A stretch of 63,999 nt of DNA, filler included, from Basidioascus undulatus (taxonomy: Eukaryota), in NCBI GenBank assembly GCA_000826855.1. It is 4 parts of 4 records of this genome, joined end to end, with 100 filler letters (N's around TTAATTAATTAA, not from the genome) between each part and the next. Parts side by side here need not be neighbours in the genome. Positions count along the whole stretch, not along the records: positions 1 to 16,216 come from JTLS01000595.1; 3 more parts are not named here. The stretch is one strand, 5' to 3'. Numbering within the stretch: position 1 is the stretch's first letter; the number at the start of each line of letters is the position of its first letter. Under the pieces are notes generated by a model. It worked only from the letters and a program-made list of their open reading frames with translations, ran no database searches and had not been told where the DNA came from. Below, one piece after another: positions 2,434-54,993 of this stretch. Both the position numbers and the translations under genes were made by a program.

Positions 2434-5400
2434 ATGCGCCCATCCTTTGCAGCAGCCGTCGCACTCGTGCTCCTGGCACCGTTAGCAAGCCCCAAGCCCC
2501 ACTTCGAGGGCCCAGAGAAATCATCACCCGCTCTCGCGCGGCGAACCAGCCCCCGCAGCGCTGTGGCGGGCGTAGCCAACTGGCTGTGGGCGCGCGATGG
2601 GAAGGGCAAGGGCGATGGGAAGGAGGGGAAGGATGATGGGAAGGGCAAGGTAGGCTTCTCGGATTCACAGGCGGTATTGAAGCGAACGTACTGTGCCCAA
2701 TATCTGGACCCCGAATCCTGTAGGACAAGGACGACGACAAGTCCAAGTCTGCACCGGACACGAAGGACAAGAAGGGCAAGGGCGACGACAAGGCAAGTCC
2801 TCCTCCGCTGTACATCCAATGCCTACACTCTAGCTAACACATTCCTTCCCTTCCGAATCAACTGTTAGACTAAAGACAAGGACAGGGTCCGTTTCCCCTA
2901 CTCGGTCGGCCTGGTGCAGCTCACGATGGCCCACTGAACATCTCTCAGCTTTGCCCATACAGAAGTCGGACGCAGTCAAGGCGCCCGAACCGGAGAAGAA
3001 GAAAGACGAAAAGAAAGATGATGCGAAGAAGAAGGACGACGGCAAGAAAGACGACGGCAAGGTAGGTTGCTTTGTGCCCTCCGCTGCGTTGCGCGGCGTG
3101 AGCTCAACTCCTTGCATTCTACAGAAGGACGATGACAAGGTCCGTCTAGCTGAATCGACCGACTCTGATGAATGAGCTCTGACTTGAGGCTTGCCTGCAG
3201 GACAAGAGCCCGAAGGCCGACGTCAAAGCGCCTGAGGCACCCAAGAAGGCCAACGACAAGAAGGATAACAAGAATCCAGACGTTAAAAAGGACGACAAGG
3301 TACGTCCGACTCGTAACGCCGTGTCCTCATCCGTGCTGATCCAGCCGCACTTTTCCCGGTGCTGCAGAAAGACGCAAGCTTCTCATGCCGCTCTCATATC
3401 CGACGTTCCCAGCTCACGCAAGGCTGCACTTTCAGGACCACTCTGATCACTCCGACCACAAGGACGATAAGAAGGACGATAAGAAGGTCAGTCGCTCTGC
3501 AGTGACATGCTGCCATCCTACCTGCCTAACGAGGTGATACCTCAGGTCGAGAAGCCCAAGGTATGCGCAGTCCATAAGCATACCTCACTCTACCCATGCT
3601 GACTTGACAATTTTGTGGGCGGCCCAGGACGATAAGCCCAAGGCGAAGGAAGTGAAACTGGATGAAAAGAAGGACGACAAGAAAAAGGTGCGGGACCCAC
3701 CGACAGCGCTTCAAAACACAAGCAGACGCTGATACCGAGATGCCGTTACGGAGGATAAGCCGAAGGACGAAAAGAAGGATGACAAGAAGGACGAAAAGAA
3801 GGACAAGAAGAAGGTGCGGCAGCCGCGCAGGTTCTTTCGAGACCAACCGGGCAGACGCTGACCTCATAAAATCCGTTTACAGGAGGACAAGCCGAAAGAG
3901 GAGAAGAAAGATGACAAGAAGGACAAGAATAAGGTATGGTAGACGTCGATGTTTCGAATCGGTGCTAGAAGACTGATCTTACGATTCCGTTTACAGGAGG
4001 ACAAGTCGAAAGAGGAGAAGAAGGCAAATCTTTTCCTGCGGTGCATTTTGCGGTTCCACCTGACGTACTCGCTCCTCCGCGGCAGGAGAAACCCGAGGTA
4101 GGATTACAGCTGGTCATCTCGAAACATTCTCTGCTGCTTACAGACCGAGCAACTCTCACAAGGAACAGAAGGTACGTCCCGCCTTGAATCTGCGCTACGT
4201 CCCTTGCTTACATGCCCTACATTCACAGGCCGACAAGCCTGATAACCACAAGGACGAGAAGAAGGACGAGAAGAAGGACGAGAAGAAGGACGAGAAGAAG
4301 GACGAGAAGAAGGACGAGAAGAAACCGGAGGTGAAAAAGGTACGCCATGCTTGTGCCTTACAGACGAACGCCAGCATTTGACATCCGGATTGTGTTGTTG
4401 CGTTGGGCAGGAGGCGCCCAAGCCCAAGCATGAGGAGAAAGTGAGTGTTTCCTGCCTTCTAGCCATGTCAATGCAGGACGACCGCTGAACGACAAGAAGG
4501 TGCGTTTCGATTGGGGATCCCTATCGTCACGATTCAGCTAACGCAATGCCACACCTCAGGACCACTCTGCCCACTCCGAGCATTCCGAACACTCCGACCA
4601 CAAGAAGGAGCACGAGAAGAAGCCGGAGGTCAAGAAGGTGGGTCATAAAGCACGATTCTGATGTTTGAGAACTAGGTCGTTGAATGACGTGGGGTCCAAC
4701 AACACAGGGGGCCAAACACGAGGAGAAGGTGCATTAGAAGTGTCGGTTCCCGAGTCGCACTGCGTGTGTTTATGCCCCCTGACCCTTTCAGAAGAAGGAG
4801 GCGCCGAAGAAGAAGCCCGAGGAGAAGGTGAGTTCTGCTGGACTGTAGGAATACTGCAAAAGTCAGGCGATTGACAGTGATGGCCCAATCCGCAGAAGAA
4901 GGAGGCTCCGAAGAAGGAGGTGCGCCCACACTTTAGGGTGGATGAACGACTGAAGTGCAACTGAACGTGACCGCTGCCAGGAGCACAAGCACGAAGAGCA
5001 CAAGGAGCACAAACCTCACGAGCACCACAAGAAGCCCGAGGAGAAGGTGCGAGTTTGACCGCAGTGTCTAAGCGATACCCGCTCCGCTTGGTCTCCTTAC
5101 TGACCTCGGGCTTACTCTACCAGTTCGAGATCAAGAAGGCTCCTAAGAAACCCGAGGCAAAGGCATGTCGGTCGTTTCCTCCTGACACAACATGCTGATT
5201 GGAGACCTGTGCGCAGAAGGAAGTCCCGAAGGGCGAGGTGCATAAGGTGGTGCGCGAAAGATGTTTGGTCCCAGAAGGACATTCGCTGACGCCTTGCACC
5301 GTTCCTTTGAAAGGTTCCTCTGCCTGCCCCCGAGCGTGTACGCAAGACCTCTCTTCCCTCTCGTCGATCAGTGCTCATGTCCCGCGCCCACCCCAGATCG

Positions 5401-5682
5401 AGTACAAGCCCTCCCCGAAGCCCGAGAAGTTCAAGGCTGCTCCGAAAGCTCACGAGATCAAGAAGCCTCATCACGAATGCGCCGCCGAGAATAAGAAGCC
5501 CGAGATCGTTGAGGTCACGGTTAAGGGCAAGACGTTCAAGATCAAGGTCTGTCACGCTGCTGTTGATCGGGTTGGAAAAATACTGAGGGTGGACTGTCCA
5601 GATCTTCTCGGACCAAAAAGTCGAGACCAAGAAGCAGGGCGTCCTTCACATCACGACGTGGGCTCTGGCGGATGAGCTGTGA
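2434..5682 (+). CDS. Secretory-pathway, highly charged K/D/E/H-rich low-complexity protein (~497 aa), ~28 exons, C-terminal ADEL
   Basis: Signal-peptide-like start MRPSFAAAVALVLLAPLAS. Exons read by eye: 2434-2649, 2724-2792, 2869-2886, 2963-3061, 3125-3139, 3201-3299, 3368-3373?, 3436-3486, 3546-3560, 3628-3687, 3754-3813, 3883-3933, 3997-4023, 4086-4097, 4169-4171?, 4229-4339, 4411-4440, 4497-4499?, 4560-4637, 4708-4728, 4792-4827, 4896-4919, 4981-5046, 5124-5162, 5217-5246, 5314-5337, 5397-5546, 5602-5682. Every length is a multiple of 3; the last exon ends ...TTWALADEL*. Confidence 0.85.
4250..4321 (+). repeat. Perfect coding 12-bp tandem repeat (AAGGACGAGAAG)x6 = (KDEK)6
   Basis: Six exact copies visible in exon 4229-4339. 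Confidence 0.95.
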
Positions 5683-7941: not shown

Positions 7942-9340
7942 ATGGCGACGCTCATTCCACCTCCGCGAAAGCCCAAGCGGGCCAAGATCATGCACGACGA
8001 GGACCCAGCCGCTGCTGCACCCGTCGCGCCAGTGCCATCCGTCGTCGTCCAGTTCACCTCGAGCGAGGATGGCTCCCAGGTCGGGCCGGCGGTCAACTTG
8101 CCTGCGGATACTGGGCGGGATGCGTTGGAGCTACTTGTTAACCAACTGAGAGGATCTGTGAGTGTCTGCTTCCAGTCCATAGGGCGGCTCGAGGAGGTTG
8201 GCTGATCAAACGTGAGCCGACGACAGGGCGAAGACCCCATCCCGTTCGCCTTCCATGTGGCCCTTCCCGAACGCGCCCCAGTCGCAGATGGCGAGCCAGT
8301 CCCTTCCTCCCGCCTCCAAATCTCGACCTCCATCCTCGCCGATGCGCTCTCCGCCAAAGTCGCCGCGGCGCACAACCTCAGCGCCGAAGACGTCTTCACG
8401 ATCGTCTGCGAGCCGCAGGCCGTCTTCCGCGTCCGTCCGGCTACCCGCTGCTCCAGCACGATCGAAGGTAAGCAGAGATGGCGTTCTCACTGGAGTCGGT
8501 GACCTAACAACATTCCCCCGCAGGTCATTCTTCCCCCATCCTCTGCGCCAACTTCTCCCCTACCGGCCGCATGCTCGCGACCGGCGGCGGCGACAACACC
8601 GCGCGCCTATGGGATCTGGATACCGAGACCCCGAAGCATACGCTTTTGGGCCACACGGGCTGGGTGCTCTGCGTCGAGTGGGAGGCGCGCGAGCGGATGC
8701 TGGCGAGCGGTGGGATGGACGGAATGGTGCGTGGCATGAGGCTCTTATGCGGCCTGCGGAGGTCTGAGCAAGTCGCCGGGGATAGGTCCGGCTGTGGGAT
8801 CCTTCGAAGGGCAAGCCAATCGGAGAGCCATTGAAGGGCCACTCCAAGTGGATCACGTCGATCGCATGGGAGCCCATACACCTGTTCGTCGATTTTCCTG
8901 TGCTAACTCTCCGTTCTTAAGTTGAAACCAAACATTTCGGGTCTCTGCAGGAATCCCTCTCAACCTCGTTTCGCCTCCTCTTCCAAGGACGGCACCGTCC
9001 GAGTCTGGTCGTCCGCGACGCGCCGGCTCGAGTACACGCTGGGCGGGCACACCGCGAGCGTGAACATCGTGCGGTGGTCGGGCGAGGGCGTCATCTACAC
9101 TGCGAGTCAGGACCGGACGGTCAAGGTCTGGGACGCAAACGGGGTGCGTCTTCCTGTCCAGCCATTTGGACGCGGTCGCTTAATGGATCACGCGTCTCGT
9201 GTAATGCTGGCAGGGCAAGCTCATCCGCTCGCTCAACGAGCACGCCCATTGGGTCAACACGATGGCACTCTCGACGGACTTTGTGCTGCGCACTGGTCCG
9301 TTCGACTGGAAGGGCAAGCCGCCCGCTTCGGACGAAGAAG
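7942..9340 (+). CDS. RSA4: Ribosome assembly protein 4 / Notchless homolog (NLE domain + WD40 repeats), 3'-truncated
   Basis: MATLIPPPRKPKR...; NLE-like domain ending CEPQAVFRVRPATRCSSTIEGH; WD40 repeats GHTGWVLCVEW, GHSKWITSIAWEPIHL, GHTASVNIVRW, HAHWVNTMALSTDFVLRTGPFD. No further RSA4-like sequence after the donor at 9341. Confidence 0.92.
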
Positions 9341-9427
9341 GTGGGTGCCTGCCTTCCTATACCCATCCCCACCGCCTCACGCAGATTCAGTCGCTATGGA
9401 GAAGGAAAAACAGGGAACGCAGCGCAC

Positions 9428-9907
9428 GTCGTCCGCCTCGACATGCCGCGGGACCGTCGAGAGGGGCAGCCCCGCAATCTGCGCGGACGTGAGCCCACGA
9501 ACGAGGACGTGCGTGTGCTGAGGATCGACAGCACCGTCCCACCACGCTTGCTCGCGGTCGATTATGCGCTTGAGCCGCTCGGGAACAGACTCGATCGATG
9601 GCTCGGGAACGAGCGAGGCGGCTTCGAGGTGGATGAGGTATTCTTGGGAGGCGCAAGGCAGGGGAATGAGGCGAATGGGAACCGAGTAGAAATAAGGAAA
9701 TGAAAGCGTACGCAGCCGGGGGAGATGCACGAGCGAATTGAGCGTTTTGCACACTCTGGCCATGCGGAGAAGGGAGCGCAGGTCGAGGTACTCGAGAGCG
9801 TAGCAGAGGATGTCCTCGGGCAGGTCGAGCAGCGCGCGCGCCTAGAGTGCGCAGGGGGAATGTAAGCTACACTCAAAGGAAGTATTGGGAGAGTTTTCAA
9901 ATACCAT
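9428..9907 (-). CDS. F-box protein, 3'-truncated
   Basis: ATG-only first exon (9907-9905), intron, then ARALLDLPEDILCYALEYLDLRSLLRMARVCKTLNSLVH (F-box motif) and YLIHLEAA. The last GT donor at 9427 runs into the RSA4 sequence. Confidence 0.72.
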
Positions 9908-52981: not shown

Positions 52982-54993
52982 TCATGCCGCCTGCTCCTTC
53001 TTCAACCTGCCCTCCCACCACTTGCCCAGTTTCCTACCGGCATACCGAGCGCTCTTGCCGAGGCCAGCACTAACTATCCCCTTGAGGCTCTGCACCACCG
53101 CCGGGCCGCGCACAGTCTCGGCGATGGCGCGCTCGAGCGTCGCGCTGAACGCCGGGTCCTCGACGACCTTGGACCAGAACAGGCCCTCGTCTAGCGGCAC
53201 GCCAGCGTCGGGCGACCCACCCAGCGTGGGCGCGAGCTTTGGGAGGTAGGCGTGTCGCAGCTTCTCGCGCAGGTGCAGGGGCAGCTTCGTCGCTAGTGCG
53301 ACGCGGTGGCGAGTCGTGTTCGGTTGCTGCTTGCAGGTCAATGTCAATACACAGTTGCATCGCAAGCACGACAGTCGAGGGTGAAGGTGGAAGAGGAGGG
53401 TGCGCGAGGTGCCGACGCACAGTTATCCGACGTTTGCCCTGCGAGATCTTGCGCCAGCCGGGGCGGAACTGGACATCCGAGAACTTGACCGCGAGGGGCG
53501 CATAGAGTCCATGGAACTGTGCGACCTGCGCGCGGACGATGTTGTGCACCTTGTCCGGGTTCTCGCCGACCGTCATGCGCGGGTCACCTGCAAACCCACC
53601 TCGCAAGATATGAGCCAAACGACCTAGAGTGAAGAGCTGACTGTGGGTCAGGGAAGAGGACGCACCAGAATAGGACAGCCCCGCGATGCGCTCATACAGC
53701 TCCTGCTCGGCGAACTCGTCCGGGAGGAGGAGGAGCGCAGTGCGGAGCGCGGAGGTGAGGTTGACCTGCTGCGCCAGGCGGACGCGCGCGTCGTCCTTGA
53801 TTATCCGGACCTGTTTCCGCCCACATTCAGCAGTGCCCGGGAGAGGGAAAGCACAGAAAGAGACGCAACACGCACAGGCTTGTGCATCCGCCCCGACACG
53901 TAGAGCGTCTCCCAGTCCATCAGGTCCCGGCAGAGGTCGTCCACGGAGATGACACCGTATTTCAGGGGCTGCCGCATCCCCCAGTCCCGTCAGCGTCCTC
54001 CATCCGCAACCCTCTACAGCGCAAGGGAAACGCCCAACGCACCACGCCATCAATCTCCACCATGCTGACATACCACACCCGCGCGCCGAACCCATGCTGC
54101 ACGCGCTCGATAGCCCGCGCGCCCGCGAGGCGGGCGTACAAGGGGTAGTGGGACGGGTTCTGGTGCAGGTTGATAGAATGCCAGTGATCCGGATGTGTGA
54201 CGGCTAGGATAAAGTCGACCATTGGCATCTCCTGTTCCCGCATCCTCTCTCTCCAGTTCAGCGACCGGCTTGTCCGCGCAAGTGGAGGCAGCATGACGGA
54301 AAGACGGACCTTAGTGTCGTACCCCTCCTGCTTGAACACCCCGCTCCCGTACGCAAACCCGTACCGCACGGGCGCCTTGAACGTGCTCATGACGCGCTCG
54401 AGCATGAGGCGCTTCTCATCGGGGACATGGATGAGCTGGTTGGAGCCGAAGTCGGCGGGGAGGGAATAGGGCGAGATGGGCGCGCGCGGAATGGGGCGCG
54501 GGAGGGACTTGGGGGAGAGCGGGGACGAGGACGTGCTGCTGCTGCTGGAGGCTGTGGGGTGCTTTGGGGGCGCGGAGGGTGGCGGGAGGGGCGAGTCGGC
54601 GGCGGTGGAGATTGAGGTGGAATGGGAGCGGAGGAGCGGGGAGGCGGATGCGTGCGAGAGAAGGGGAGAGCGGCAGCGCGCAAGTCGCAATAGCTGGTGG
54701 GCGGTGTTGGACTGATGGAAGTACGATTGGGTGTCAGTATGCGCTTAGGCGAGGGGTCGTTGTAAAAGCGTGTCGTCGGTCTGGGTCGGCACTCGCTGCC
54801 GTTCCAGAGCCAAACCTCTGTCCGCACACGCTCAATCGTGCAGATCGAGCATCCTCTTCAAACAGAGCCTCTGAAACAAAACGCTTTCCCCTCCGCCGTC
54901 CAAGCTTCCCATCACCTCCGCCGCTTCGCACCCCAGGCCCGCGGCGCGCAAGAGAGAAGAGAAGACAGCGAGCGACACGGCACTCACGTGCAT
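52982..54993 (-). CDS. TAM41: Mitochondrial phosphatidate cytidylyltransferase Tam41/Mmp37
   Basis: MH|SNTAHQLLRLARC...; FKAPVRYGFAYGSGVFKQ, MVDFILAVTHPDHWHSINL, NLTSALRTALLLLP, IAGLSYSGDPRM..GENPDKVHNIV, QSLKGIVSAG. Confidence 0.95.
54758..54905 (-). ncRNA. Candidate box H/ACA snoRNA in TAM41 intron 1
   Basis: Hairpin, then AGAGGA (H-box pattern, 54857-54852), then hairpin 54831-54768, then ACA (54763-54761); pocket-to-box spacings 15 and 14 nt. Confidence 0.45.

Follow-up and report, generated by a model that had tools for sequence, protein, structure and literature searches.

Among the described systems that come closest to the gene considered here are the micro-exon genes (MEGs) of schistosomes and the PEVK region of titin. 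MEGs are described as having 10 to 20 exons of 6 to 81 bp, mostly 15 bp, separated by introns of 0.1 to 5 kb, and in the same account they occur in Schistosomatidae only, encode signal-peptide proteins of no more than 189 residues, and generate isoforms through splicing of the central exons (bioRxiv 10.1101/2023.06.21.545858). Titin PEVK is portrayed as a disordered spring rich in P, E, V, and K, encoded by ~100 short exons that expanded through duplication and loss and are differentially spliced (PMC6469411). We analyzed a predicted gene at positions 2434..5682 (+ strand) of a 63,999-nt stretch of DNA from Basidioascus undulatus (GenBank assembly GCA_000826855.1), which consists of four parts joined end to end with filler and is referred to below as the window. 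A preliminary description of this locus had proposed that its short exons form a combinatorial splicing system comparable to MEGs. The interpretation that we favor, with somewhat more confidence than doubt, is that this is a genuine, lineage-restricted basidiomycete gene whose low-complexity middle part grew by tandem duplication of exons together with introns, and which is constitutively spliced to encode a secretory polyampholyte.

The gene resembles MEGs in that a putative signal-peptide exon and a longer last exon surround very short exons divisible by three; like them, it is tough for automatic gene finders and appears to be lineage restricted. In contrast, its introns measure 54 to 136 nt rather than the 0.1 to 5 kb described for MEGs, its median internal exon is 36 nt rather than ~15 bp, and its predicted protein of 498 residues exceeds the 189-residue maximum given for MEG proteins. 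No sequence relationship to MEGs emerged from searches with exons 1 and 26, the host is basidiomycete-like, and no gene family is seen within the window. Titin PEVK is, by analogy, probably the closer functional parallel, in that a disordered part of the protein, with an abundance of P, E, V, and K, is encoded in a run of short exons; KKPEVKK-type motifs occur here as well. However, the titin exons undergo regulated, tissue-specific skipping in an exon-definition organism with long introns, whereas the gene described here has short fungal introns, a product predicted to enter the secretory pathway, and no homology to titin. In fungi, intron retention was reported to account for 61% of alternative splicing events and exon skipping for 3%, with intron definition proposed as the mechanism (PMC3925392). 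For Coprinopsis cinerea, exons of ≤15 nt are reported in ~9% of gene models, and exons of 1 to 3 nt exist (PMC12230235). Exons of such small size are not unusual in basidiomycetes, and their presence by itself is no sign of regulation. In the open-access literature on fungal micro-exon genes and on phase-0 tandem exon duplication, we found no description of such an array.

Our manual model divides the predicted gene into 27 exons (24 firm and 3 doubtful) and 26 introns and gives it a coding sequence (CDS) of 1,497 nt (498 codons plus stop); coordinates are given in Table 1. The start codon at 2434 is the first ATG past an in-frame stop, and translation ends at a TGA at 5680-5682. Throughout the region, purine-rich, T-poor blocks consisting mainly of AAG, GAC, and GAG alternate with blocks of ordinary composition that begin with GT (sometimes GC) and end with AG. 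As modeled, exons contain 37% A and 8% T, and introns contain 20% A and 25% T. All 26 introns are in phase 0 and all exon lengths are divisible by 3, in agreement with the preliminary description; this is the simplest model, and at least ~20 of the phase-0 introns are robust. The same description had counted ~28 exons and ~27 introns. The mini-exon array itself stands, but the exact count does not and is better given as 24 to 27 exons.

Most internal exons are indeed short, with 18 of 25 measuring ≤60 nt and 13 measuring ≤36 nt (median, 36 nt; range, 6 to 111 nt). Of the CDS, 18% lies in exons that are no longer than 36 nt and 50% in exons that are no longer than 81 nt. The earlier observation that most exons end in AAG was also borne out, since this is true of 20 of the 26 exons that precede an intron, and the following exon opens with G in 15 of 26 cases. 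Introns range from 54 to 119 nt; without the doubtful exons, the upper limit would be 136 nt. The resulting density of ~15 to 17 introns per kb of CDS is ~5 times that of our single local reference, the Tam41 gene of the window. As had also been reported, the array is flanked by a hydrophobic, signal-peptide-like segment in exon 1 and by a nonrepetitive C terminus, encoded by the last two exons (150 and 81 nt).

Several features of the model do not depend on the choice of splice sites. When frames are counted from the start of each exon, third-position GC content (GC3) peaks in frame 0 for all but two of the 27 exons (the 6-nt exon and the 24-nt exon 25). In the other 25 exons, frame-0 GC3 is 0.67 to 1.00, compared with 0.79 to 0.86 for the coding frame of the Tam41 gene. 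Codon usage in the CDS is strongly skewed (AAG 131 versus AAA 22; GAC 50 versus GAT 18; GAG 53 versus GAA 11), and the direction of this bias is common to five long open reading frames (ORFs) of the window. We also used a frame-free dynamic programme that was scored by the codon bias of other ORFs in the window together with generic splice signals and was run at four intron penalties. At these penalties, 23 of 25, 21 of 24, 19 of 21, and 17 of 19 introns were in phase 0. The programme recovered 17 of the 27 manual exons exactly and three more with one boundary shifted in frame; it made evident errors in exon 1 and lost exon 19. An earlier version without a coding score over-split the region into 25 introns, some of them in an Arg-rich frame. 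That frame was rejected, as both GC3 and the finding that exons 8 and 18 are paralogues disfavor it; AGA and AGG are not strongly avoided in the training ORFs, so codon choice alone is not decisive against it. The seven minus-strand ORFs overlapping the gene that were scanned against Pfam gave no match; their openness is due only to the scarcity of T on the plus strand.

The splice signals of the model are consistent. Donors are GT at 22 of 26 introns and GC at 4, a branch consensus 6 to 40 nt upstream of the acceptor matches CTRAY in 14 of 26 introns and YTNAY in 7 more (neither in 5), and retention would introduce an in-frame stop in 16 of 26 introns. Only 2 introns are both open and divisible by 3.

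The uniform phase of the introns has a simple explanation in codon usage. Once the introns are removed, 77 of the 78 AG|G sites of the CDS, and all 55 of its AAG|G sites, lie on codon boundaries. They do so because AAG is almost always the codon used for Lys and the next codon is usually one for Asp or Glu, which starts with G; since AAG|G falls on a codon boundary, introns at the usual junction sequence are in phase 0 and the exons between them are divisible by three. The phase-0 excess, which is far beyond the one-third expected by chance, is thus a by-product of composition, and selection for exon skipping is not needed to account for it. The step taken previously from the layout of the gene to MEG-like combinatorial splicing is not supported: symmetry results from AAG coding (77 of 78 sites), the introns are short, and exon skipping is reported as 3% of fungal events. 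The related proposal that skipping tunes the charge of the product fares no better, because the net charge of the individual exons stays within -2 to +3; skipping would change length but hardly change charge.

Sequence similarity within the locus points to growth by tandem duplication of exon-intron modules, plus slippage within exons. Positions 3627-3908 align to 3750-4022 with 68% identity over 297 columns; exons 10 to 13 are alike, and introns 11 and 12 have their final 10 nt in common (CCGTTTACAG). A second set links exon 8 with exon 18. Positions 3410-3458 and 4535-4582, which include the end of the upstream intron, are 82% identical over 49 columns; intron 7 plus exon 8 matches the second half of intron 17 plus exon 18 with 73% column identity, and the branch region CAGCTNACGCAA is common to both. 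In this set, intron 7, which follows doubtful exon 7, is paralogous to 4500-4559. In a third set, exons 20 and 21 are 93% alike (4789-4815 versus 4893-4919). The piece at 4477-4499 has a GTGCGT donor that, together with the intron downstream of it, is paralogous to intron 7. This piece and possibly 4144-4171 and 3368-3373 may be regarded as three ghost exons, which point to exon birth and death.

According to the interpretation that we favor, short exon-plus-intron modules would have been duplicated repeatedly in tandem, with occasional decay, to give the middle part of the gene. The combination of AAG Lys codons and G-initial Asp or Glu codons would have kept nearly all usable AAG|G junctions on codon boundaries. 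The introns, whose lengths of 54 to 136 nt are typical of fungi, would be recognized across the intron and removed constitutively, so that one main mRNA is predicted, and any minor forms would most likely stem from retained introns or from acceptors shifted by 3 nt rather than from skipped cassettes. At 10 of the 26 acceptors (introns 3, 4, 11, 12, 13, 16, 19, 20, 21, and 23), a second AG lies 3 bases downstream (CAG|AAG or CAG|GAG), and one-codon, frame-keeping acceptor shifts are possible for this reason. The product would enter the secretory pathway via its N-terminal signal peptide as a disordered polyampholyte of 498 residues, and its C-terminal ADEL may keep it in the lumen of the endoplasmic reticulum (ER).

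The predicted product is composed largely of Lys (153 residues), Asp (68), Glu (64), Pro (41), Ala (37), and His (25), i.e., 31% K and 27% D plus E. Its N terminus has a hydrophobic core at residues 5 to 18 after a basic residue, where the Kyte-Doolittle mean over 11 residues reaches 2.87 (residues 5 to 15), and is signal-peptide-like. The middle consists of ~370 residues of K/D/E/P/H low complexity; the charged fraction of the array exons is 0.5 to 1.0, the total net charge is +28, and His clusters are found in three exons (8, 18, and 22). The last 76 residues are nonrepetitive, end in ADEL, and form a small tail that looks rich in beta structure. Soluble ER residents of the K/HDEL class carry a C-terminal tetrapeptide of the PROSITE pattern [KRHQSA][DENQ]EL. 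The signal-like N terminus and the C-terminal ADEL of the product fit this pattern, provided that the last 55-nt intron is removed, as GC3 favors. Assignment to this class depends on whether the receptor of the species accepts the variant, and ADEL would require gatekeeper residues like those of S. pombe. In that yeast, ADEL is reported to be a working ER retrieval signal (PMC8248988). ER residence of the product is therefore plausible as far as its termini go, and with its ADEL tail the product looks more like a protein that stays in the ER than like one that is diversified and exported, which speaks against the combinatorial reading.

With S. pombe BiP (which ends in ADEL) and with other K/HDEL-tailed soluble ER residents, the product has in common a predicted signal peptide and a C-terminal xDEL. 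In contrast to those proteins, it has no chaperone or enzyme domain and is nearly all low complexity. Hydrophilins, dehydrins, and His-rich lumenal ion-binding proteins are likewise highly charged, with K-rich blocks and His clusters. The likeness to these proteins is compositional only; no Pfam profile, including those of the dehydrin, late embryogenesis abundant, and hydrophilin families, matched the exons that were scanned singly, and the net charge is +28. We infer from composition only that the product might act as a hydrophilic buffer or as a holder of metals, ions, or water.

A number of observations weigh against parts of this interpretation. The splice junctions are all predicted from sequence. 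Four of the 26 donors are GC (2793, GCAAGT; 3374, GCAAGC; 4024, GCAAAT; and 5163, GCATGT), and two of these, GCAAAT and GCAAGC, are weak. GC donors usually account for ~1% of donors, and 4 of 26 is far above this figure; the weak ones may reflect local mis-modeling, decayed introns, or weak sites prone to regulation. At the 28-nt exon 4144-4171, the donor is good and the acceptor is better than any other in that stretch, but when this exon is read in the all-phase-0 frame it breaks the frame and leads to a TGA in the next exon. With regard to the product, the net charge of +28 speaks against a calsequestrin-like acidic Ca2+ buffer, and in single-exon searches no homologue, Pfam family, or structure backs any function. 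ADEL is reported to be excluded by the receptors of most organisms (PMC8248988), and ER retention is uncertain for that reason. Finally, when the stripped intron bodies were compared in pairs, none of 325 pairs scored above the shuffled maximum and only 2 lay beyond the 99th percentile. Because the stripped introns have no detectable similarity, only some modules are demonstrably duplicated, and each of the remaining introns could be a separate gain. The alternatives are that most modules are old or that many introns have a separate origin.

The dissimilarity of the intron bodies is an argument for the first alternative, in which the introns entered an originally intron-poor, low-complexity ORF separately, at AAG|G proto-splice sites, possibly in an introner-like burst, and duplication played a minor part. 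AAG before 20 of 26 junctions and a G-initial next exon at 15 of 26 would be expected at such sites. However, at least three sets of modules share intron ends along with exons, and introner-like elements are known by their mutual similarity. No such elements were found among the 325 intron pairs, and the introns have no match in the rest of the 64-kb window, so that a burst is not supported. We consider this alternative unlikely, though less so than the two that follow.

A second alternative takes up the preliminary description and regards the symmetric mini-exons as MEG-like or titin PEVK-like cassettes that are skipped in combinations to yield length variants of a secreted polyampholyte. A signal peptide is predicted, and the internal exons, 13 of which are ≤36 nt, are all divisible by 3, in phase 0-0, and cleanly removable, but composition already accounts for this symmetry, and the charge-balanced exons would allow no charge tuning. 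Sites at which skipping might be regulated are present, since some donors are weak (those with GC among them) and one acceptor, AAG, is weak too. Skipping of a micro-exon would leave a combined intron of ~130 to 150 nt, and the gene apparently already uses introns of 119 and 136 nt. Skipping is rare in fungi, where introns are short and recognized by intron definition; it made up 3% of events in the survey cited above (PMC3925392). The ghost exons show that individual exons have been dispensable over evolutionary time. The intron length and sequence kinship that mark MEGs are not found here, and there is no gene family or paralogue in the window and no homologue elsewhere in the searches with exons 1 and 26. 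Taken together, these points make cassette splicing improbable.

We give a similarly low weight to the possibility that the gene is decaying or that the model is wrong locally, so that frameshifting pieces (4144-4171 and 4477-4499) or retained stretches (4024-4085, 5247-5396, and 5547-5601) alter or truncate the product. The ADEL end and the all-phase-0 pattern would then be partly artifacts of the model. The stretch 4024..4228 has two competing models. Our model (model Y) has a GC-AG intron at 4024-4085 with the weak donor GCAAAT, a 12-nt exon, and an intron that extends to 4228; optionally, a 3- or 9-nt exon ends at 4171, and otherwise the intron to 4228 measures 131 nt. The dynamic programme chose model X instead, with an exon at 3997-4097 and the 28-nt exon 4144-4171, separated by a phase-2 intron of 46 nt that lacks a branch consensus; these pieces jointly restore the frame. 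The signals at the 28-nt exon are strong, and intron 13, read in frame, has a GC3 of ~0.79 (hand count), with the frame restored if the 28-nt exon is included. On the other hand, His exons 8 and 18 are in the same frame on either side of the doubtful stretch, and the remaining exons have a strong codon bias and clean signals.

The 6-nt exon 3368-3373 may be a mere part of a single 136-nt intron, 3300-3435, and the mini-intron upstream of ghost exon 4477-4499 would measure only 36 nt. Toward the 3' end, an ORF of 158 codons (5199-5672, +) spans exons 24 to 26 together with introns 24 and 25 and the last intron, with exon 25 read in a shifted frame. It is in favor of retention that this ORF is open; it is probably open by chance, since its intron parts are low in third-position GC. 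When unspliced, 5247-5396 is an open stretch of 150 nt with a GC3 of ~0.58 (hand count), which is near the intron GC content of 0.55, and the last intron (5547-5601, 55 nt) is open if retained, but the C-terminal frame that would follow has a GC3 of ~0.33 (hand count) versus 0.78 for the spliced frame. A further proposal, that ~20 symmetric mini-exons serve as interchangeable cassettes whose regulated skipping sets the length and His-cluster number of the product, with the frameshifting ghosts 4144-4171 and 4477-4499 acting as poison exons that turn the gene down, is the least probable of those considered here.

Table 1. Coordinates and characteristics of the exons of the predicted gene
Feature	Position	Strand	Description
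Exon 1	2434..2649	+	216 nt; signal-like segment, RR dibasic site, WLW motif, and G/K/D repeats; donor AAG|GTAGGC
Exon 2	2724..2792	+	69 nt; followed by a textbook GC donor, AAG|GCAAGT
Exon 3	2869..2886	+	18 nt; manual model
Exon 4	2963..3061	+	99 nt; exactly recovered by the frame-free dynamic programme
Exon 5	3125..3139	+	15 nt, KDDDK; manual model and dynamic programme
Exon 6	3201..3299	+	99 nt; manual model and dynamic programme
Exon 7 (doubtful)	3368..3373	+	6 nt, KD; weak GC donor GCAAGC; GC3 not best in frame 0
Exon 8	3436..3486	+	51 nt; His cluster DHSDHSDH; paralogue of exon 18
Exon 9	3546..3560	+	15 nt; manual model and dynamic programme
Exons 10 to 13	3628-3687, 3754-3813, 3883-3933, 3997-4023	+	Tandem paralogous exon-intron modules of ~125 nt
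Exon 14 (model Y)	4086-4097	+	12 nt; in the doubtful stretch 4024..4228
Exon 16	4229..4339	+	111 nt; six perfect 12-nt repeats, AAGGACGAGAAG
Exon 17	4411..4440	+	30 nt; manual model and dynamic programme
Ghost exon	4477..4499	+	23 nt, in-frame TGA; within the 119-nt intron 4441-4559
Exon 18	4560..4637	+	78 nt; His cluster; manual model and dynamic programme
Exons 19 to 22	4708-4728, 4792-4827, 4896-4919, 4981-5046	+	Exons 20 and 21 are paralogues (KKEAPKK); exon 22 is His-rich
Exons 23 to 25	5124-5162, 5217-5246 or 5217-5249, 5314-5337	+	Exon 23 has a GC donor, GCATGT
Exon 26	5397..5546	+	150 nt, nonrepetitive; no homologue or Pfam match in the searches described in the text
Exon 27	5602..5682	+	81 nt including the stop; C terminus ...WALADEL

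Database searches with single exons gave no relative of the product. A word-index search of a collection of 5.8 billion clusters with exons 1 and 26 found no homologue. HMMER comparison of exon 26 with 1.84 billion representatives returned 4 matches at an E value of ≤0.001, which we dismissed as chance: they are multi-stretch matches to unrelated proteins of 974 to 2,281 residues, and the two that were partly inspected bear repeats. With the same exon, a scan of JGI metagenomes gave 218 pattern matches, 0 of which were confirmed, and the ESM Atlas gave no usable match. Exons 1, 4, 16, 18, 26, and 27, scanned singly against Pfam, matched no family.

The gene had previously been called fungal and placed in a basidiomycete, and evidence from the window supports this. 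The window contains a gene for Tam41/Mmp37, a mitochondrial phosphatidate cytidylyltransferase, at 53015-54465 (-), the ORF of which best matches Wallemia mellicola (59% identity over 35% of the query), followed by other Basidiomycota at 41 to 49%. This gene has ~3 introns of 50 to 77 nt in the ~1.05 kb aligned to homologues. Wallemia is a xerophilic genus. The host appears on this evidence to be a basidiomycete without a close relative in the searched database. Six stop-to-stop ORFs of ≥300 codons are present in the window. No similar AAG-dense gene was found elsewhere in it; the only other AAG-dense, purine-rich tract, at 45.9 to 46.5 kb, was rejected as simple polypurine sequence inside a minus-strand dehydrogenase gene. 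Within that short-chain dehydrogenase gene, the polypurine tracts (on the plus strand; CT-rich on the minus strand) occupy 45950-46160 and 46370-46470 and resemble simple-sequence introns. ARAGORN made calls at 45394-45474 (-) and 42823-42900 (-), consisting of a tRNA-Leu(AAG) and a second tRNA-like call with a four-base anticodon, which may be an intron-containing tRNA or an artifact. Neither flank of the mini-exon gene has content with a bearing on it: the upstream flank gave no Pfam match, and downstream of the gene two overlapping ORFs match WD40 (8907-9518, +) and F-box (9380-9841, -).

We conclude that this locus is an unusual orphan gene architecture in which a mini-exon array was built by known processes. 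If the cassette alternative were true after all, the array would be the first MEG- or PEVK-style system described in fungi, as judged from our searches of the open-access literature, and cassette skipping, being rare in fungi, would raise the importance of the gene considerably. Genes of this kind are probably missed by automatic annotation; neither the product itself nor relatives of it were found in protein collections by the exon searches. If the model holds, the gene has an extreme intron density for a fungus and is a clear natural example of how codon composition (AAG|G) can force intron phase, and it bears on the debate over whether the excess of phase-0 introns stems from exon shuffling or from proto-splice sites. 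The gene would gain further importance if its ADEL-tailed polyampholyte were a stress or metal buffer of the ER lumen in a lineage whose nearest match, in a single search, was Wallemia.

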